Assembly: GCA_964392445.1 (NCBI GenBank) | Contig: CAYMPD010000001.1 | Coordinates: 32,001-96,000, forward strand | Reading direction: 5' to 3' | DNA length: 64,000 nucleotides | Origin: an uncultured archaeon | GTDB taxonomy: Archaea > Aenigmatarchaeota > Aenigmatarchaeia > CG10238-14 | In this document: positions 9,749 to 41,641 of the stretch, piece by piece | Position numbering within the stretch: the first letter of the stretch is position 1 | Layout: every line of letters begins with the position of its first letter | Made by a program: the position numbers and the translations under genes | The notes under the pieces: model-generated | The model's input: the letters and a program-made list of their open reading frames with translations, nothing else | Database searches by the model: none | What the model was told of the DNA's origin: nothing

Positions 9749-10993
9749 TTAATTTGGAGTGGTCAAAACTACATCAACTATATCTTCTTGTAAAGGTCGG
9801 GTAAGATTTCTTGTATTGGTTCCAAAATCAACTGATGCATTTATCTCCGCAACATAAAAAGACATATTTTCTCTAAGATAAGTACTAATTCTTCTTTGAA
9901 GTTCTTTATATTCTTCACTTGACCTATATTCTCCAAAAATCCTATCGAGATTTGCTAGGTCTCCCTCAAATTTTTCATCATATAAAATACCCAATAAATC
10001 AGTACCAAATCTCTCTACACGTGAATCTAATGTCGCCCTCATCTTATCTTTAGCCCCTTCAATCTCTGAATCCTTATAATCCGATACTCCTCTCACAACT
10101 TCATAAATTCCTCTTCTGACCTCTAAATCGTCACAAACAGGTATTATATCCACTCCTACTATTAAAGGACCTTGATCATTTTCTATATAGGAAAGCATTG
10201 CTCTTACAGAACTTAAGGATATGTCCTCTACTATTTGTGGAGAATCTATGCCGCCCACAGGAATTGCTCCAAGTGCTGTATTTTTAGCTTCCTCTTCATC
10301 ACTTCTACCAACTCTAGCCAGACACCCTAAATATTCAGGTTTTCTCCCCCTTTTCATAGAAACTAGACATCTTAAATCAAGTGGATGAGGTAAAAATTCT
10401 TCAAGAAAAAGTCCCCCCGGATTTATACTATTTCTATAGAATGCACTAGGGACTTCTCCTCTTGGTTTACCCCGCTGAGAACTACAAAAATCAATGAAGT
10501 CTTCTTTTCCGTTTACTTTAATTATAGATTTTCCTCTGCTCCCAGAAGTCGGTTTTACTGCTACCGGAAAACCTAACTCTTCCTGTATAGAATCTGCTAT
10601 TTCTTCTATATTTTCTTCATTTCCTCTAATTGTTCCACCAACAATTTTCAAAGGATGTTTTGTTAAGTGATAAGGAGCAGTTGGTATTTCTTGATCCTTA
10701 AATACTTCTTTCATGGCCGGTTTATATCTACAAAACCCTTCCACCGAATAAGAACTTAAAACTGTTATTCCAGACTCTTCCAACTCTTGAGCGAAATTAA
10801 CTCTTCCTCTCCTATGCACCAATCTATTCACGACTTTATCTAGATCTTCTAGAAACTCTTTCTCTATTCCCGTTCTATGAGAATAATGCATTATAGTAGG
10901 TATAACTCCCCTATTTAGAAAAGCTTGGAGTATTAAAATTTCATCTACATAAAGTTCTGTATCAAGATAATCAACGGCAAGTCCTATTGTCAT
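9749..10993 (-). CDS. LysX/RimK-like ATP-grasp amide ligase with a long helical insertion
   Basis: 'VNRLVHRR', 'VAVKPTSGSRGK', 'LEEFLPHPLDLRCLV', 'KNTALGA', 'GVDII', 'AEINASVDF'. Confidence 0.75.
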   Translation of the reverse strand: MTIGLAVDYLDTELYVDEILILQAFLNRGVIPTIMHYSHRTGIEKEFLEDLDKVVNRLVHRRGRVNFAQELEESGITVLSSYSVEGFCRYKPAMKEVFKDQEIPTAPYHLTKHPLKIVGGTIRGNEENIEEIADSIQEELGFPVAVKPTSGSRGKSIIKVNGKEDFIDFCSSQRGKPRGEVPSAFYRNSINPGGLFLEEFLPHPLDLRCLVSMKRGRKPEYLGCLARVGRSDEEEAKNTALGAIPVGGIDSPQIVEDISLSSVRAMLSYIENDQGPLIVGVDIIPVCDDLEVRRGIYEVVRGVSDYKDSEIEGAKDKMRATLDSRVERFGTDLLGILYDEKFEGDLANLDRIFGEYRSSEEYKELQRRISTYLRENMSFYVAEINASVDFGTNTRNLTRPLQEDIVDVVLTTPN

Positions 10994-11058
10994 ATCAAAA
11001 CAAATTAAAATATAACTTTTAAATATCTGACCCTATAAATTGTGTAAAGGTGTAATAA

Positions 11059-11145
11059 ATGAATGAACTAGACTTTTTTTGTGTTTTCCGAGTTTTATCT
11101 AGTTCGATCACTGTTTCTAAGAAGAAGTTAAAGAAGAGACGATAA
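11059..11145 (+). CDS. Putative 28-aa leader or small peptide MNELDFFCVFRVLSSSITVSKKKLKKRR
   Basis: ATG preceded by the SD-like AAGGTG; stop 16 nt before tRNA-like element 1. Confidence 0.35.
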   Translation: MNELDFFCVFRVLSSSITVSKKKLKKRR

Positions 11146-11161
11146 TCGGTCATTGTTTTTT

Positions 11162-11210
11162 GGACTGTGCGTCTCATGGGCTATCAGGTTCGAATCCTAA
11201 CAGTTCTTTC
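11162..11210 (+). ncRNA. tRNA-like mini-element 1 (acceptor stem plus T-arm only)
   Basis: GGACTG(11162-67)/CAGTTC(11201-06) stem; TCAGG-TTCGAAT-CCTAA T-arm; 16-nt connector. Confidence 0.55.
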
Positions 11211-11213
11211 TAG

Positions 11214-11807
11214 ATGGATGATAAAATGGCACCAAGAATAATACTAATAGATAATAATACTCAATACTTGAGTGAATTGACTGGATATTTAAATGATCTC
11301 GGGACAGAAGTAGATTTAACAAGCCCATTGTGTAATTTCCAGATCGATGAGTACGATGGTGCAATTGTTTCTGGAGGAAGAATGCCTCCAGGTAATCATA
11401 AACCTATTTATGACTGGTATTCTGAACTCTTTGAAGAAGCCGGGAAAAGTGGGATTCCTGTACTTGCAATATGTTTTGGTCACTTGATCTTTGGATTAAC
11501 ACAAGGAGGTAGTATTAAAAGGATGGATCTAGGAGAAGAAGGTATTATAGAGGTAAATTTTGAAGAAGGTTATCCTCTAGCACCTGACGGACACAGATTA
11601 AGAGTTTTCGTATCCCGTGATAGAATATTGCAAAGAGTACCTCCTTCTTCAAATGTATGGGGGGTTTCTTCTAAGTCTAGTGCTGAGGCGTTGAGTTATG
11701 GGTCTATATTTACTGTAGGTTTTCACCCAGAAGTACGCGAATCTAGGAATCAAGGTCAGATGATACTAGATGGATTTTATCAAATATGTGGAGGAAGTGA
11801 AAGATAA
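11214..11807 (+). CDS. Class I glutamine amidotransferase-fold protein (start possibly 11226)
   Basis: 'IILIDNN', 'GAIVSGG', nucleophile elbow 'LAICFGH', 'GFHPEV'. Confidence 0.85.
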   Translation: MDDKMAPRIILIDNNTQYLSELTGYLNDLGTEVDLTSPLCNFQIDEYDGAIVSGGRMPPGNHKPIYDWYSELFEEAGKSGIPVLAICFGHLIFGLTQGGSIKRMDLGEEGIIEVNFEEGYPLAPDGHRLRVFVSRDRILQRVPPSSNVWGVSSKSSAEALSYGSIFTVGFHPEVRESRNQGQMILDGFYQICGGSER

Positions 11808-12646
11808 TGTATGAGAGGCCCTTATTAGTAGTAAAAATAGGTGGGAGTTTAATTCCCCCATGTGGTGAGTTACAAGACACTGAACAACTCAGAGGTATCG
11901 CGAAAGATATAGCGGGGTTGTATCCAAGGAACGATTTCGTAATTTTACATGGTGGTGGAAATAGGGTTACTTATAGAATGAAAGAAATGGGTAAAGAACC
12001 TCAATTTATAACATCTAGAAATGGTATGAGAAGTAGATACACTGACAGAGGAACTATGGATATTTTCGCTGACGTGATGGGAGATATAAACCAAGAGTTA
12101 GTCGATTTACTAACTACCCAAGGTCTAAGTTCAAGGGGGTTTTATAATGGTAGTAGCCCATTAATGGGTAGAAGAAAAAAGGCCCTTAGAGATTACCGTG
12201 ATGGTAAGGTCCTTCTAGTTAGAGATGATTACAGTGGTAGATTATATGGTTTAGATAGAAATTGTTTGTTAGATTCTCTTGAAAGGGAAGAAATGCCGGT
12301 TATCTCGCCTGTGGCTGTTGGTGAAGAAGAAGAATTTTTAAATGTAGATGGGGATACTGCTGCTGCATATACAGCCTCTGAACTTGGAGCAAGAACATTA
12401 ATTCTTATTACTGATGTTACAGGCGTTTTAGATGGTGATAATGAGTTAGTAAGAAGAGTACCATATCAGGATTTAGATAGTTGGATTAGTAGAGTTGATG
12501 GTGGTATGAAAAGAAAATTAATGGCGAGCAAAGAGGCTATAGAAAGGGGCTTAGAGAAAGTTTTAATTTGTGGTGGACGGGAGGATCGTCCTTTATCAAG
12601 AGCTTTGAGATATGAAAATGGTACTGTAATAAAAGGTGATAATTAA
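11807..12646 (+). CDS. lysZ: [LysW]-aminoadipate/glutamate kinase-like (LysZ/ArgB)
   Basis: 'VVKIGGS', 'LHGGG', 'SRYTD', 'RKK...DGK...DDYSG', 'PVISPVA', 'LNVDGDTAAA', 'GGMKRKL'. Confidence 0.85.
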   Translation: MYERPLLVVKIGGSLIPPCGELQDTEQLRGIAKDIAGLYPRNDFVILHGGGNRVTYRMKEMGKEPQFITSRNGMRSRYTDRGTMDIFADVMGDINQELVDLLTTQGLSSRGFYNGSSPLMGRRKKALRDYRDGKVLLVRDDYSGRLYGLDRNCLLDSLEREEMPVISPVAVGEEEEFLNVDGDTAAAYTASELGARTLILITDVTGVLDGDNELVRRVPYQDLDSWISRVDGGMKRKLMASKEAIERGLEKVLICGGREDRPLSRALRYENGTVIKGDN

Positions 12647-12652
12647 TGTTAG

Positions 12653-13894
12653 GTGAACATCAAAAGATATGATAATTTGAGGGGTAGAGAAGTACCTATA
12701 TCAATAGTATTAAGAGAGTTCACTCAAGGTTATCCATTATATTTTGGTTATAGAGGGGATAAATCTTTCCAAGAACTTCTCTCTTTATTATTTGCAACAG
12801 GTGTCCATTCAATAGAGATAGACAATCCTTATCAGGGGGACTTTTCCGATGGCCATGTACCGATTAAAACAGGACATGTACAATTAGCAGGAAAATTGTA
12901 TGGTGACAGAGTATTATCACATCTTAGGTTAGGGCCAGGTATACCTGATATAAAATACTACTTAGAATATATGGAAGAGATTCAGAAAACTGGTGTTGGA
13001 TTATTCACAACACTTGACTACGAAAAAATAGGTTATGAATCTCAAGAAGATCAATTGAAAGATGTGGAGAACGGAATAGGAAGGTTAATAGAATCCGGAG
13101 TTCAAACAGTTAGATTTAGTGTTGAAAATGGTGTTTACTATTTCCAAAACGGTGAAAGAAATGAGATAGAAAATCTAATAAGAGTAGCAATTGAAGCCGG
13201 CGCCAATACTATAGGACTCCCTAAAACCAATGGAAAAAATAGTGTTGATATGTACAGATTTGGTCAAGAAGTAGGGACTTTGGTCCCAGACGATATTAGT
13301 ATTCGCTTACACTGTCATGGAACCCCCCCCTATCTTTTTGTTCTGAATGGATTGGCAGGGTTGTTAACTTCAGGCCATGAAAATGTAGTTGTAGAGACCA
13401 CACTTGAAAGATCTTCCCATCCTAATAGCGTTGAGATACCAGGTATAGTTGAAATGAATGATAGATTGAGAGAAGGAGGTGTAAAAACTGGGGTAGAACC
13501 TAATTTTCTTGTAAGAATCGTTAGTGATGCTTTAGATATGATTTATCGACCGTCTCATTTACCACCTTATGAATTGGCAATTGGAGGACACGCAGCGAAA
13601 AAAATGAATGGTTCTAAAGACTATGATGGTCAAATTCAAAGAAATAATCATAAGAGAATTTTTTCTCACACGACAGGAAAAAATATCTTAAGAGATTTAC
13701 TAGAACAGTATGGTATACAGGTACATCCTAAGAATATCCCAAAAGTAGCAACTGAAATCAGAAGGCTTATGTCAGGGGATTATCCAGATATTAATCCTAG
13801 GATATATTTAGATGAAGATGGGGTTCCTAGATTGGATAATATTCTAACGAAAATTTCAGAATTAAGGGGTATCCCAATCAATGGGGGTGATTAA
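12653..13894 (+). CDS. Divergent DRE-TIM metallolyase (homocitrate/isopropylmalate synthase-like)
   Basis: 'VLREFTQG' (cf. TLRDGEQ), 'SIEIDNP', 'TIGLPKTNG', HxH 'LHCHG', 'HTTGK'. Confidence 0.6.
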   Translation: MNIKRYDNLRGREVPISIVLREFTQGYPLYFGYRGDKSFQELLSLLFATGVHSIEIDNPYQGDFSDGHVPIKTGHVQLAGKLYGDRVLSHLRLGPGIPDIKYYLEYMEEIQKTGVGLFTTLDYEKIGYESQEDQLKDVENGIGRLIESGVQTVRFSVENGVYYFQNGERNEIENLIRVAIEAGANTIGLPKTNGKNSVDMYRFGQEVGTLVPDDISIRLHCHGTPPYLFVLNGLAGLLTSGHENVVVETTLERSSHPNSVEIPGIVEMNDRLREGGVKTGVEPNFLVRIVSDALDMIYRPSHLPPYELAIGGHAAKKMNGSKDYDGQIQRNNHKRIFSHTTGKNILRDLLEQYGIQVHPKNIPKVATEIRRLMSGDYPDINPRIYLDEDGVPRLDNILTKISELRGIPINGGD

Positions 13895-13918
13895 AATACC
13901 ATAAATTCAGTTGACTGT

Positions 13919-13970
13919 AGAATTGTGCATTATTTGTGGCCTATCAGGTTCAAATCCTGACAATTCTTTC
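13919..13970 (+). ncRNA. tRNA-like mini-element 2 (acceptor stem plus T-arm only)
   Basis: AGAATTG(13919-25)/CAATTCT(13961-67) 7-bp stem; perfect TCAGG-TTCAAAT-CCTGA T-arm; 18-nt connector; 27/30 identity with element 1 over the last 30 nt. Confidence 0.6.
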
Positions 13971-13981
13971 AAAAATTAGAG

Positions 13982-14278
13982 GTGGAGAAAATGGAAGATA
14001 TCTATGAAAATAATGGATTATCTATATCAGTGGTTGATTTAGATGGTTTTAGAAATTCATTAAGGACTTTAGGGAATAGAACAACGTTAGAAAGAGTAAT
14101 AATAGAAAGTTTTCTTATCTACGGATATCAACCACAAATTGAAATTACTGGGATCCGAGTCGGTGATAGATACTTTTGGGGAGAAGAAACCCCAAAAGCA
14201 GAACCTATCTATCACGGAGTAGTACAAGGGTGTAGTTTATATGGACAAGAAATTGTAGTGGAGGGGGGGTTGGTATGA
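13982..14278 (+). CDS. Hypothetical protein (start possibly ATG 13991)
   Basis: Open frame with SD-like GAGGTG; Lys-poor like its neighbours. Confidence 0.6.
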   Translation: MEKMEDIYENNGLSISVVDLDGFRNSLRTLGNRTTLERVIIESFLIYGYQPQIEITGIRVGDRYFWGEETPKAEPIYHGVVQGCSLYGQEIVVEGGLV

Positions 14279-14334
14279 AAATACTAGTAGGAATATGCTT
14301 AATTTACTCCAAAGAAAAGGTGATTATATCTTAG

Positions 14335-14655
14335 GTGTTGACCGGAAGGATTGTTAGTGGATTAGACTGTAGTGGATATTACAGGGGATTCTTAGTTTAT
14401 ACCTTAGGGACCAATTGCGAAGAAATATTACACCTTCATTGTATCCCAGAACAGGAAATTAAAGAGGGAATTGATGAAAAGAAAGTTATAGATCGATTGG
14501 GCTACGAAAAGGAAGTTACAGAATTCGAGGGTAGTTACACATTAACTCTCTCTGGTAAAAAAATTGGTGCCCTACATGTAGATACCCCGTCAAATTTAAC
14601 CAGCAAATCCGATGTTCAAACTTTATTAAGAAAAAGTGGATATCAGTTCAGCTAA
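14335..14655 (+). CDS. Hypothetical protein
   Basis: 106-aa ORF co-directional with its neighbours. Confidence 0.55.
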   Translation: MLTGRIVSGLDCSGYYRGFLVYTLGTNCEEILHLHCIPEQEIKEGIDEKKVIDRLGYEKEVTEFEGSYTLTLSGKKIGALHVDTPSNLTSKSDVQTLLRKSGYQFS

Positions 14656-14670
14656 ACCATAAAAACTTGG

Positions 14671-16368
14671 GTGACTAAAATGAGAAGTATGAAAGAAGAT
14701 GAGACTATGTTCTGGTCAGACAGAATTGCGAATTTATTGATAGAAAGAAAAAAATATAACTACATAGACAAAAACACTCAAAAACCAGAGAAATTTCAAG
14801 TAAAAAGTAGTACTTCTATATCAGGTGTTCCACACATAGGTAATGCTTCTGATGTGATAAGACATGATGCCGTGGTCAGATCTCTAAAAGAAATGGGAGA
14901 GAAAGTACATTTTATCTGGGTATCTGAGGATATGGATCCTTTAAGGAAAGTACCTGCCGGAATTCCTAAAGAATTTAGTAAATATTTGGGTATGCCTGTA
15001 TCAGATTTACCTTGCCCAGAGGGTTGTTGTGAGAGTTATGTCAAGCACTTCACTAGATTATTCATAGAAAGTCTTCATAAGCATTTTGGAACTGAACCGG
15101 AATTAATTTCAACCACAGATGCTTACAAAAATGGGAAATTTTATCCTTATGTTAAATTGTCTTTGGAAAAGATTGATATAATAAAAAAGATACTTAACAA
15201 ACATAGAACCAATCCTCTACCTAAAGTTTGGAGTCCCTTAAAACCAGTTTGTGATAATTGCGGGAAGATAATAACTACCAAGATAGATGATGTAAATAAA
15301 GATGTTGTTAGTTACAGATGTGAAGATTACTCCTTTAAAGAATTTGGTCAGAAAGCCTACACTAAAGTTGAGGGTTGTGAACATAAAGGCGGATGTGACA
15401 TTACTAAAGGTAATTATAAATTGTTATGGAAGATCGAATGGGCAGCTGAGTGGCCTTTGTGGAAGATTAATTTCGAAGGTGCGGGAAAAGAACACTATAT
15501 GCCAGGTGGTTCCTTCTGGAATGCTGGCGAAATTTGTGAAAAAGTGTTTGATTGGCCTGAACCTTATCCTGGAGAAAATGAAATCCAGCCTTATGAGTAC
15601 ATTTTAGTAGACGGAGAAAAAATGTCTGCATCTAAAGGTAATGTGGTCGCAACATGGGAATGGCCTGAATTTGCTCCGCCTGAAATACTTAGAATGCTCC
15701 TTTTAAAGAGACCAAATAAGACAAGAGGATTCTCCTATGAAAAAATACCCGAAATGGTTGATGAATTTGATGAATTAAAGGAAATCTATTATGGCCATAA
15801 AAAGATTGAAAATGAAAAGGAATTAAGAAATTTGAAAAAACTTTACGAAGTTTCTAGGATCGAAGAAAAATATCATTATACCCCTAGCGTTTCGTTCAGT
15901 TACTTGGCTTTAATAAGTCAGATGATTCCTGAATCTACTACAAGTAATTTTGATAGAGTAATTCAAGTTCTCAAAAAAACCGAACATATTACAGAAGATA
16001 ATGAAGAGATTAGAACTCATGTAAAGAAGAGACTGGAAATGGCTGGAGAGTGGATGAAAAGATATGGTCCCGAAGAGGATAGGATAAAATTATTGAAAAA
16101 GGTACCAAAAGAAATAGTTGGGAAATTGAGTGAAGAACAGAAATCGTCCTTGAAAGAACTTTCGGGATTTATCCAAAAAGACTTTACAAGAAAAGAAATG
16201 TGGGATGAAATAAAATCAACAGCGGAAAAGTACGGAATAAAACCCGGAAAAATATTCCAAGCAGCTTATCTAGTTCTAATTGGAAGAAAAAGAGGACCAA
16301 GAATGATACCTTTTATTCAACTATTGGATAGAGATTTCGTGATTAAGAGATTTAGTTTGGAAGATTAA
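14671..16368 (+). CDS. lysS: Class I lysyl-tRNA synthetase (start possibly 14707)
   Basis: 'SISGVPHIGN', 'EDMDPLRKVP', 'WKIEWAAEW', 'GAGKEH', 'KMSASKGN', 'GPRM'. Confidence 0.97.
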   Translation: MTKMRSMKEDETMFWSDRIANLLIERKKYNYIDKNTQKPEKFQVKSSTSISGVPHIGNASDVIRHDAVVRSLKEMGEKVHFIWVSEDMDPLRKVPAGIPKEFSKYLGMPVSDLPCPEGCCESYVKHFTRLFIESLHKHFGTEPELISTTDAYKNGKFYPYVKLSLEKIDIIKKILNKHRTNPLPKVWSPLKPVCDNCGKIITTKIDDVNKDVVSYRCEDYSFKEFGQKAYTKVEGCEHKGGCDITKGNYKLLWKIEWAAEWPLWKINFEGAGKEHYMPGGSFWNAGEICEKVFDWPEPYPGENEIQPYEYILVDGEKMSASKGNVVATWEWPEFAPPEILRMLLLKRPNKTRGFSYEKIPEMVDEFDELKEIYYGHKKIENEKELRNLKKLYEVSRIEEKYHYTPSVSFSYLALISQMIPESTTSNFDRVIQVLKKTEHITEDNEEIRTHVKKRLEMAGEWMKRYGPEEDRIKLLKKVPKEIVGKLSEEQKSSLKELSGFIQKDFTRKEMWDEIKSTAEKYGIKPGKIFQAAYLVLIGRKRGPRMIPFIQLLDRDFVIKRFSLED

Positions 16369-39896: not shown

Positions 39897-40778
39897 ATGA
39901 AAATTGTTATTTTAGGCTCCCCAGAAAGGAGAAAAAAAGACTTAGAACTCCTGAAAGACGCAAAAGGGGTTTTTGATAAAGCTTTATATGTTTCAATAGA
40001 TTCCGTTAAGTTGGAGGTATCAGACGAAATGAAAGTATCCTTCGAAAAGACTGATCTTTCAGATTTCGACGTAATTCTCCCTGTGCCCACATATGAACAC
40101 AAAGAAACCTATTATATGTGTCTGAAAATTCTTGAAAAAAGTTGTTATGTTCCATACAAGAGCGATGATTTCTTTTTACTCTGGAACAAACCACTTTTAA
40201 TAAAGAAACTTCAAGAGAGTGATATTAACGTGAGGAAAACAGTTGTAGTCGCATCTAATTATATACCCGAAAATGCTGTAAAAGAATTGAAATTGCCTAT
40301 CATTGTTAATTCATATAAGGGGAAAGTTTTGGTCACCGACAAAAATACCCTTAAGGATGTTATGGATTTATTTAAAAAAGGTATAATGAATAGACTTGAG
40401 AAGCCTATATCGGCTAATAAGAGTATCTGGTGCTTTATTGTCGGTGACGAAGTTATTGGTTGTTATGAAAAAGTAGGTGATGAGAGAAAAAGAATGACTA
40501 AAGCCAGTTCGGATATTACTAAATTATCTAAAAGGATAAAATCCATTGTCAATACTGATTTCTGCATAATTAATTTCCTAGAAACTAAAGACAAAATAAT
40601 CGTAAAAAATATTAGTGTGACACCAGATTTCCCGTTGTTTGAAAAAATCACAGGTAAAAACCTAGGCTTGAGTTTACTAATTTATGTTAAAAGCCAGATT
40701 GAAGAAGAAAAACTTCCTTTTATAACGAAATTCATAATAGACGTTATGGATTTATTGAAAAGGTTGGTGAAACAATGA
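39897..40778 (+). CDS. Degenerate RimK-like ATP-grasp protein (probable pseudoenzyme)
   Basis: Paralogous to the downstream gene ('DLSDFD.ILP', 'NK'); lacks the GSxG loop and the ExN motif. Confidence 0.7.
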   Translation: MKIVILGSPERRKKDLELLKDAKGVFDKALYVSIDSVKLEVSDEMKVSFEKTDLSDFDVILPVPTYEHKETYYMCLKILEKSCYVPYKSDDFFLLWNKPLLIKKLQESDINVRKTVVVASNYIPENAVKELKLPIIVNSYKGKVLVTDKNTLKDVMDLFKKGIMNRLEKPISANKSIWCFIVGDEVIGCYEKVGDERKRMTKASSDITKLSKRIKSIVNTDFCIINFLETKDKIIVKNISVTPDFPLFEKITGKNLGLSLLIYVKSQIEEEKLPFITKFIIDVMDLLKRLVKQ

Positions 40779-41641
40779 AAATAGCGATATTGGGTAAAGT
40801 AAAAAGGAGTTACGAAGAAATAAAGATCATAAAAGAAGCGAAGAAAGTTTTTAACTCTGTTTTATATTTACCTATACCAGAAGCGAGGATAGAGATAAAT
40901 TCCGACTTCAGTGTTAAATTTAAGAACGAAGATTTGTCGGACTTTGACTGTATATTACCAAGGATTCCCCGAAGTTATAGGACATATGGATTCACGTTAT
41001 TGTCAGCTCTTAAAGGCAAAACATTTGTGCCAATAGAGCCAATGTCCTTGTTCAACTGTCATAATAAATTCCTAACCCTCATGATACTGAATGAAGAGGG
41101 TTTACCTGTACCTAAAACATTACTATCCGAAAAGAGAAAAATCATCGAGGATTCCTTGGATGAAATAGGTTATCCAGTTGTAATGAAACTTCTCTACGGT
41201 TCCATGGGGAAAGGTGTAATGTTTGCAGACGGCAAACAATCTGCTATAAGTTTCATGGACACACTTGAAAGATTCGACGAACCAATTTTCGTCGAGGAAT
41301 TTGTTCCAAATAATGGAGAGGATATTAGAATTTACATGGTAGATCATGAACCCATTGCTTGTATGAAGAGAGTGGCAAAAGAAGGGGAAAAAAGGTCTAA
41401 TATTGGGATTGGGGGAAAAGGGGAAAAGTACATATTGCCTGAAAAATACGAAGATCTGGTCCACAGTGCATCCAAGTCACTTGAAGCCAGGATTTGTGGC
41501 TTGGATTTGATGGAATCCAAGAAAGGACCCGTTTTTATTGAAGCTAATATCAACGCCCAATTCAAGGGACTAGAAGAAGCTACCAAAATCAACGTTGCAA
41601 AAATTATAATAGAATTTATGAAGAGCTGTGTGAAAGAGTGA
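40775..41641 (+). CDS. rimK: RimK family alpha-L-glutamate ligase
   Basis: 'NKFLTL..L...GLPVPKT', 'PVVMKLLYGSMGKGV', 'EEFVPNNGEDIR', 'RSNIGIGG', 'GLDLM', 'EANINAQF'. Confidence 0.9.
   Translation: MKIAILGKVKRSYEEIKIIKEAKKVFNSVLYLPIPEARIEINSDFSVKFKNEDLSDFDCILPRIPRSYRTYGFTLLSALKGKTFVPIEPMSLFNCHNKFLTLMILNEEGLPVPKTLLSEKRKIIEDSLDEIGYPVVMKLLYGSMGKGVMFADGKQSAISFMDTLERFDEPIFVEEFVPNNGEDIRIYMVDHEPIACMKRVAKEGEKRSNIGIGGKGEKYILPEKYEDLVHSASKSLEARICGLDLMESKKGPVFIEANINAQFKGLEEATKINVAKIIIEFMKSCVKE

Follow-up and report, generated by a model that had tools for sequence, protein, structure and literature searches.

The LysW-dependent alpha-aminoadipate pathway for lysine and ornithine in Thermus, Sulfolobus and Thermococcus combines LysW, its amino-group carrier protein (AmCP), with homocitrate synthase (HCS), LysX or ArgX, LysZ, LysY, LysJ and LysK (PMC12998189), and AmCP-dependent clusters for the secondary metabolites DADH, ficellomycin and azinomycin have been described in Streptomyces and Serratia (PMC11726168). 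Here we analyse a locus with relatives of several of these enzymes in a 64,000-nucleotide stretch of DNA (the window; contig CAYMPD010000001.1, positions 32,001 to 96,000, of assembly GCA_964392445.1) from an uncultured aenigmatarchaeon. The locus, an island at positions 9749-14655 of the window, consists of a minus-strand gene for a LysX/ArgX-fold ligase and plus-strand genes for a class I glutamine amidotransferase (GATase), a LysZ-type kinase, an HCS-like enzyme of the DRE-TIM type (TIM) and two orphan proteins (orfA and orfB), directly followed by a class I lysS. We favour, tentatively and at slightly less than even odds (a probability of about 0.45), the reading that this island is what remains of a carrier-type (LysW) aminoadipate lysine cluster, re-tooled and in part eroding, with its catalytic residues intact, and so a lineage-specific operon of diverged LysW-pathway parts which ends in lysS and would not amount to a working lysine or ornithine pathway. 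What we count as evidence for it are the patchy occurrence of the parts, the partners missing from a genome that is 94.9% complete, the three states of synteny found among related lineages, the signs of a lysine-pathway ancestry and the preserved catalytic residues.

Results

Partners of the lysine pathway are missing from the genome

The host assembly is an Aenigmatarchaeota metagenome-assembled genome (MAG) of 1.2 Mb in 54 contigs and is of a tiny, symbiont-like type, the genomes of its relatives measuring 0.3-1.3 Mb. Absences were checked in this whole assembly, beyond the window. LysW was found in it neither by the TIGR01206 model or a phylum-tuned LysW profile nor by tblastn or a scan for EDWGE-type C-termini, and the genes that flank lysW in the congeneric genome G002 are adjacent here, with nothing between them. 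ArgC/LysY was not found, nor was a canonical HCS or any other HMGL enzyme; tblastn with archaeal queries gave no match for aconitase/homoaconitase or for homoisocitrate dehydrogenase (HICDH), and there was likewise no tblastn match for a LysK/ArgE-like protein. One class III aminotransferase, with 34% identity to ArgD, lies on another contig beside no pathway gene. Since LysW, LysY, LysJ, LysK, homoaconitase and HICDH were not found, the set of genes present cannot make lysine. A first-pass annotation of the DNA had reported that LysW, LysY, LysJ and LysK are lacking from the window, which proved correct and can now be extended, as LysW, LysY and LysK-like proteins were not found genome-wide and only the unlinked ArgD-like aminotransferase was. 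Its description of the cluster as an orphan is upheld too: the complete lysWXYZJK/aconitase set, which it had named as the finding that would speak against it, was looked for throughout the genome and not found. Literature searches returned nothing on LysW-pathway genes in Aenigmatarchaeota.

Only part of the island is common to related lineages

Comparison with two related lineages revealed three states of the same site, whose flanking genes are 68-81% identical among them. In the present genome the order is rhomboid protease gene, ligase (minus strand), GATase, kinase, TIM, orfA, orfB, lysS, with orc1/cdc6 beyond lysS; in G002 it is rhomboid, GATase, kinase (minus strand, in two frames), orfB, TIM, lysS; and in the loci L021-23 it is rhomboid, TIM, orfB, lysS. 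The core conserved across the three lineages is thus confined to TIM, orfB and lysS, the TIM proteins being 53-62% identical to one another. The GATase and the kinase occur in two lineages only, and for each of them the identity of the protein from this genome to its counterpart in G002 is only about 30%; in G002 the kinase is frameshifted, lies on the opposite strand and forms a very long branch; a metagenome contig (L024) is 100% identical to the G002 locus. The ligase occupies the site between rhomboid and lysS in this genome and not in the two related lineages. The accessory parts, namely the coupled GATase and LysZ-type kinase together with the divergent LysX-fold ligase, are therefore complete only here. 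Conservation thus does not extend to the four genes as a set, and for this reason we do not accept them as one machine: the ligase family occurs alone in other Aenigmatarchaeota genomes, and the GATase and kinase are absent or broken in the sister lineages. That the cluster lies directly before lysS was correctly observed; it was not simply inserted there, since the related lineages also have the HCS-like gene before lysS. The possibility of a recent foreign insert was rejected, as the GC content is unremarkable and the core is common to the relatives.

A survey of 371 genomes of the phylum Aenigmatarchaeota gave a similarly scattered picture of the pathway. Full-length LysW with the ending (G)EDWGE occurs in 5 of the 371, including G002 and a genome designated G135, and is always unlinked; the LysW of G002, which has the island, ends in EDEDWGE, and G002 has neither the ligase family nor LysY. 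LysZ-like kinases are present in about five of the genomes, two of them solitary among housekeeping genes, and clear LysY/ArgC-type matches in three, one within a bacterial-type arg operon of the congeneric genome G004 and two solitary. LysY was found in none of the five LysW-bearing genomes, and the full pathway set in none of the 371.

Several single loci deserve recording. Orphan LysW-like genes with a CxxC..CxxC pattern stand amid unrelated genes at L029 980-1225 (G002), at L027 1477-1677 (G135) and in L034, L035 and L036, and some of the genomes with an orphan LysW are also without any LysZ-like kinase. The LysW of a Thermoproteota MAG (L025 1495-1677), encoded beside lysY, ends in EDWGQ, not EDWGE. 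The solitary LysY/ArgC-like genes among housekeeping genes are at L132 4213-5187 (G127) and L128 1141-2085 (G166), the G166 copy containing an in-frame TAA. The arg operon of G004 (L020, G004:C58, 574-13618) carries argG, argC, argD, a gene for N-acetylornithine carbamoyltransferase, argB, argH and an ArgE-like gene, and just upstream of these lies a 1042-residue open reading frame (ORF) with a GATase match, a candidate carA/carB-like gene; this operon is unusual for a DPANN genome and is unrelated to the island.

Layout of the island

The layout of ORFs in the first-pass annotation, with the ligase divergent from the GATase, kinase, HCS-like and two orphan genes before lysS, was confirmed at all coordinates (Table 1). 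The stop codon of the GATase gene and the start codon of the kinase gene overlap in the sequence TAATG, indicating translational coupling. The spacer between the kinase and the HCS-like gene is 6 nt, and that between orfB and lysS 15 nt.

Table 1. Genes and RNA-like elements of the island and its lysS, in window coordinates
Feature	Position	Strand	Description
LysX/ArgX-fold ATP-grasp ligase	9749..10993	-	414 aa; weak matches to RimK/LysX models, AlphaFold model
28-codon leader ORF, ending VSKKKLKKRR	11059..11145	+	purine-rich 3' part kept as DNA in two related lineages
tRNA-like minihelix 1	11162..11207	+	6-bp acceptor-like stem and T-arm with GGTTCGAATCC; 6 nt upstream of GATase start
Class I GATase, GuaA-subunit-A-like, stand-alone	11214..11807	+	197 aa; PF00117; triad C87/H171/E173
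LysZ-type amino-acid kinase	11807..12646	+	279 aa; ATG overlapping GATase stop
HCS-derived DRE-TIM enzyme (TIM)	12653..13894	+	413 aa; very rare family
tRNA-like minihelix 2	13919..13967	+	7-bp stem AGAATTG/CAATTCT and T-arm; 14 nt upstream of orfA
orfA, orphan	13982..14278	+	98 aa; seen in this genome only
orfB, small partner of HCS-like gene	14335..14655	+	106 aa; homologues beside TIM in relatives
Class I lysS, last gene of the unit	14671..16368	+	TIGR00467, 390 bits

The ligase has a LysX/ArgX fold with an inserted hairpin

Against curated models the ligase scored 44.5 bits (TIGR00768) and 36.1 bits (TIGR02144), the latter not reaching the cut-off of 275.6 bits and being confined to the N-terminal 150 residues. 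A search of 5.8 billion proteins gathered its family into 12 clusters, in which K147, D282, E383 and N385 are invariant. An AlphaFold (AF2) model built on this family reached a predicted local distance difference test (pLDDT) value of 87 and a predicted template modelling score (pTM) of 0.89, and the best PDB matches of this model in Foldseek were the ArgX-LysW structure 3vpb, the bifunctional LysX/ArgX 5k2m and LysX 3vpd, with target TM scores of 0.82-0.86; D-Ala-D-Ala ligases and RimK ranked below LysX/ArgX. The extra length of the protein is accounted for by a helical hairpin of about 85 residues (approximately 290-375) between the Mg-binding strands that bear D282 and E383/N385.

The family is present in 5 of the 371 Aenigmatarchaeota genomes, four of which are without LysW; in genome searches three of these bearers of the ligase (G012, G016 and G007) gave no match to an HMGL enzyme, full-length LysW or LysZ-like kinase. 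Elsewhere, family members neighbour an HCS gene in G135 (L004) and gatB in two further loci, and a Methanomethylicia MAG (L003) has one next to genes for HICDH and for subunits of aconitase. Beside the HCS of G135 lies a 204-residue fragment of an isocitrate/homoisocitrate dehydrogenase (L004 7710-8324), probably a decaying gene. The present window also holds a tandem of RimK-family ATP-grasp genes at 39897-40778 and 40775-41641, the second of which passes the rimK_fam model (175.8 bits) and the first of which is divergent (49.5 bits).

The kinase belongs to the LysZ radiation and is paired with a GuaA-like GATase

The kinase is a member of the amino-acid-kinase fold (PF00696, 130.9 bits). Its best matches are to LysZ models; it remained below the cut-offs of the curated models NF010659 (LysZ, 187.3 bits against 223) and NF010662 (170.2 against 194) and exceeded that of the argB domain model (156.8 against 151.3), and the motifs K10-G-G, H48-G-G (residues 48-50), R77, N179/D183 and K237 are all kept and invariant. 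Among its top 120 homologues listed, none is named ArgB; those with a name in their source are called LysZ and are 35-41% identical to it, while the closest of the 120, P0032 (49% identical), carries no source name. A phylogenetic tree placed the kinase within the LysZ radiation, together with those of two further Aenigmatarchaeota genomes (support 87/82), on a branch of 0.83 compared with a median of 0.66. The single ArgB row of this tree, from G004, sits on a branch of 3.9 far from the kinase, the deep forks being weakly supported, and is 25% identical to it. An identity as ArgB of the arginine pathway was ruled out: ArgC is missing, and the true ArgB operon, that of G004, is a different, bacterial-type cluster. 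The first-pass annotation had named, as speaking against its reading, a full pathway set elsewhere in the genome together with proteins branching among ordinary LysX and LysZ; the former was not found, but the kinase does lie among ordinary LysZ proteins on a branch of ordinary length.

The GATase meets the PF00117 model (52.2 bits, cut-off 22.8), has an intact triad of C87, H171 and E173, and aligns to GuaA subunit A; its nearest relatives in the PDB are archaeal GMP synthase subunits A (E 5.5e-14). It does not reach the GMP synthase subunit A equivalog (68.2 bits, cut-off 198). GMP synthase subunit A is the ammonia-donating subunit of its enzyme. We considered whether the island GATase is simply the missing subunit A of this genome and rejected this because no GMP_synt_C domain or subunit B was found in the whole genome. 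Apart from the island enzyme, CTP synthase is the only GATase encoded there. A match to Peptidase_C26 (PF07722) falls exactly on the cut-off of 20.5 bits and covers only 77 residues, and a gamma-glutamyl peptidase structure was matched with an E value of only 0.0095.

The genomic context of ordinary LysZ was surveyed across GTDB species representatives, in the 80 loci that matched best. LysY and LysJ lay no more than 5 kb from LysZ in all 80 loci, LysX in 75 and LysW in 66-72, and a GATase like that of the island in none, so the pairing of kinase and GATase is special. A second pairing of an ATP-grasp enzyme with a GATase in this genus, that of a RimK-like ligase with a convergent 193-residue GuaA-like GATase, occurs in G002 (L044 4338-6255) and in G004 (L045 151-1694), accompanied by a retropepsin-like protein in L044 only; this module was not found in the present genome, CTP synthase being its only other GATase.

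TIM is a rare derivative of homocitrate synthase

TIM does not reach the cut-offs of PF00682 HMGL-like (21.1 bits against 29) or TIGR02146 (20.6 against 413.6). A profile of its family matched isopropylmalate synthase (IPMS) 6e1j with an E value of 2.9e-14 and also HCS 6ktq and 3ivs, over the barrel and subdomain I, and a bridging family (P0016) passes the Pfam HMGL-like model at 61 bits. The family is very rare, with 3 clusters in a word-indexed search of 5.8 billion proteins and 7 matches among 1.84 billion representatives. A single-sequence AlphaFold model of the HCS-like protein had a pLDDT of 39 and was not used.

Residues R21, Q25, E55, E158, T192, H220-x-H222 and G311-x-H313 are invariant with the canonical enzymes, and we presume their metal-binding and catalytic roles from the alignment and from solved HCS and IPMS structures. 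TIM has R-E instead of R-D, and the Arg of its 'VRF..E' motif is common to HCS 6ktq and not to two IPMS structures; we take both features to be marks of 2-oxoglutarate users. Because all catalytic residues are kept, the condensation reaction has presumably been retained: the HCS-like enzyme would bind a divalent metal ion together with a 2-oxo-dicarboxylate resembling 2-oxoglutarate, and would condense the latter with acetyl-CoA.

TIM has its nearest outgroup, with which it is about 28% identical, in two Thermoproteota MAGs, where the gene adjoins those of a genuine LysX and an HICDH; these MAGs also have two canonical HMGL enzymes. Together, the contexts of this outgroup and of the ligase family point to a lysine-pathway ancestry of the pieces. 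The LysX-, LysZ- and HCS-type descent assigned earlier to the three enzymes is substantiated by the structural matches of the ligase, by the homologues and tree of the kinase, and by the TIM profile.

Orphan proteins, lysS and the upstream elements

Neither orfA nor orfB matched any family model searched, and orfA had no tblastn match in the loci of the relatives. Homologues of orfB lie beside TIM in G002 (L007 2425-2742) and in L021 (2627-2956) and have in common a G-YY-FL N-terminus and a GY..S C-terminus; no PDB relative or fold was found for orfB, and the ESM Atlas gave only unnamed clusters. That orfB is a split-off lysine-binding RAM domain of HCS was ruled out by an hhalign probability of 0.2% and the lack of a PDB relative, and from their sequences both orphans were ruled out as carriers, since they have no zinc ribbon (CxxC pairs) and no acidic tail.

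In the relatives, lysS overlaps the gene that precedes it. Class I LysRS of this type was not found at E 1e-30 in the related genomes G003, G007 and G012, one of which is 97% complete, and the type of synthetase may vary within the family.

Upstream of the genes lie a leader segment and a minihelix that are conserved in all three lineages. The frame of the 28-codon leader ORF is not kept in L007 and L021, where a 9-codon ORF (MIGELEKLC/V) is found upstream instead; a role as a leader peptide or in lysine sensing is uncertain because the reading frame is not kept. The conserved part is a purine-rich segment (GTTTCTAAGAAG..TTAAAGAAG..CGATAR) about 20 nt upstream of the minihelix, at approximately 2300-2335 in L007 and 1280-1310 in L021. 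The minihelix, which is without D and anticodon arms, joins an acceptor-like stem to a T-arm that carries GGTTCRAATCC. Two copies occur in this genome, before the GATase gene and before orfA, and homologues lie at approximately 2350-2398 in L007, before orfB and TIM, and at approximately 1326-1374 in L021, before TIM. Its pairing was read by eye; one stem pair shows a compensatory change among the lineages (T-A versus C-G), and RNAalifold did not recover the structure. The minihelices could be processing signals for RNase P/tRNase Z or an operator bound by LysRS.

Discussion

According to the reading that we favour, the enzymes of the island may well have kept their individual chemistry. Next to the condensation ascribed above to the HCS-like enzyme, the kinase would phosphorylate an N-blocked glutamate or aminoadipate at its distal carboxylate, and the GuaA-type GATase would most likely feed ammonia to the acyl phosphate or to the ligase. 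Without the missing partners such products could not be converted to lysine, and the enzymes would therefore either have been co-opted to another role, probably one connected with the supply of lysine, or be on their way out. Several points weigh against this reading. All four enzymes are intact and the GATase and kinase are translationally coupled, which fits a joint function better than decay; the persistence of the orphan genes across deep branches argues for selected roles; the frameshift in the G002 kinase comes from one assembly, a second contig (L024) being 100% identical; about 5% of the genome is unassembled, and lysW could lie there; and all of the substrates are predicted.

An alternative that takes the first of these points at face value is a coherent pathway without LysW, in which the ligase would make an N-acyl derivative of glutamate or aminoadipate, the kinase would phosphorylate its distal carboxylate and the GATase would amidate the acyl phosphate, the acyl donor possibly being, by analogy with the use of citrate by RIMKLB, a tricarboxylate from the HCS-like enzyme. 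We regard such a pathway as unlikely. It gains from the coupling of GATase and kinase, from a GATase of the ammonia-donor type for which the genome offers no GMP synthase partner, from the intact active sites throughout, and from the absence of such a GATase from all 80 ordinary LysZ loci. It can also draw on N-blocked glutamate and aminoadipate as substrates of ArgB/LysZ enzymes (PMC12998189), on the synthesis of beta-citrylglutamate by RimK relatives (PMC7907349, which cites Collard 2010 for it), and on GatD/MurT, where a small GATase works with an ATP-dependent activator of a carboxylate (PMC3266927). The set, however, is complete in this genome only, as G002 is without the ligase and its kinase is split, and L021-23 lack ligase, kinase and GATase; moreover, the ligase family exists without any HMGL enzyme in three genomes, and no product can be named. 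To our knowledge, furthermore, no enzyme combining an amino-acid kinase with a GATase has been described. In its fully specified form, in which the tricarboxylate derived from the HCS-like enzyme would be joined to glutamate or aminoadipate, the kinase and GATase would form a two-part amidotransferase of a new kind, and the unit would be expressed with lysS under lysine-linked control by leader and minihelix, the proposal is very doubtful.

The first-pass annotation had instead suggested a short pathway of the amino-group-carrier kind whose carrier is non-canonical and whose LysK is replaced by a GATase-fold enzyme hydrolysing a gamma-glutamyl amide. The bond cleaved by LysK is a gamma-glutamyl amide, and such hydrolysis is the chemistry of GATase-fold hydrolases, so the idea is chemically sensible; the Peptidase_C26 match at exactly the cut-off and the closeness of the ligase model to LysW-bound ArgX are in keeping with it. 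We nevertheless consider it decidedly improbable, as PuuD-type enzymes are much more distant from the GATase than GuaA subunit A is and, with no linked LysY or LysJ, there would be nothing new to release. A carrier candidate is lacking as well: orfA and orfB have neither CxxC pairs nor an acidic C-terminus, no ORF of the genome ends in EDWGE, of the five Aenigmatarchaeota genomes that have a ligase of this family, four are without LysW, and the LysW of G002 is an ordinary, unlinked one.

It is no more credible that the carrier is simply unassembled, lysW being present as in G002 and serving a truncated LysW route of loading, phosphorylation and amidation or release. The unlinked LysW of the island-sharing G002, the 54 contigs and 94.9% completeness of the assembly and the resemblance of the kinase to ordinary LysZ would suit this explanation, but the flanks of the G002 lysW are adjacent here with nothing between them, two hidden Markov model searches and a motif scan were without LysW, and G002 itself has neither the ligase family nor LysY. 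Finally, that the accessory genes are non-functional, neutral leftovers close to loss, as their patchy presence, the split G002 kinase, the truncated HICDH beside the G135 HCS and the in-frame stop of the G166 LysY-like gene might suggest, appears very unlikely in view of intact ORFs with invariant catalytic residues, a kinase branch of normal length, a tight operon with coupled starts, and the retention of TIM and orfB in three lineages at a TIM identity of 53-62%. Because the intact active sites, the coupled GATase and kinase and the conserved TIM-orfB-lysS operon speak against plain junk, we prefer a re-tooled remnant of the LysW cluster.

DPANN archaea are believed to have lost the biosynthesis of amino acids. 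The intact pieces of a carrier-lysine pathway without their partners would represent either enzyme co-option, possibly with new chemistry such as amidation by a kinase plus a glutaminase, or a pathway caught, as is rarely seen, in the course of erosion. Few families that we have seen are as rare as the HCS-derived one, whose gene always lies in a predicted transcript with lysyl-tRNA synthetase behind a tRNA-like element; this offers a testable connection in archaea of a lysine-pathway enzyme with tRNA mimicry and with expression of the synthetase. The island also carries a warning for annotation, in that the existence of a lysine pathway does not follow from matches to 'LysX', 'LysZ' or 'LysW' in a reduced genome.

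Compared with the LysW pathway, the island likewise clusters an HCS-type enzyme, a LysX/ArgX-fold ligase and a kinase that is of the LysZ rather than the ArgB type, and retains a link to lysine through lysS. It differs in that its genome is without LysW, LysY, LysK, homoaconitase and HICDH, that its three enzymes fall below the curated LysX, LysZ and HCS cut-offs, that the ligase carries the helical insertion of about 85 residues, and that the kinase is coupled to a GATase of class I. Ordinary LysZ has LysY and LysJ within 5 kb in 80 of 80 loci. With the AmCP-dependent clusters of Streptomyces and Serratia it has in common the re-use of LysX/LysZ-type enzymes outside primary lysine synthesis; those clusters, however, always encode the carrier, a reductase and extra tailoring enzymes, while the island is carrierless and resides in a 1.2 Mb archaeal genome of the symbiont type. 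The juxtaposition of a small stand-alone GATase and a predicted ATP-dependent activator of a glutamate carboxylate recalls the lipid II amidotransferase GatD/MurT (PMC3266927) and other two-part amidotransferases, except that the partner in the island has the amino-acid-kinase fold and not that of a Mur ligase. Lastly, the ligase belongs to the same ATP-grasp superfamily as the RimK family, which includes the beta-citrylglutamate synthase RIMKLB, and departs from these proteins in having LysX/ArgX as its first structural neighbours and RimK lower in the ranking. The ligation of glutamate to a tricarboxylate by RIMKLB (PMC7907349) is a precedent through which the HCS-like enzyme could be linked with the ligase of the island.

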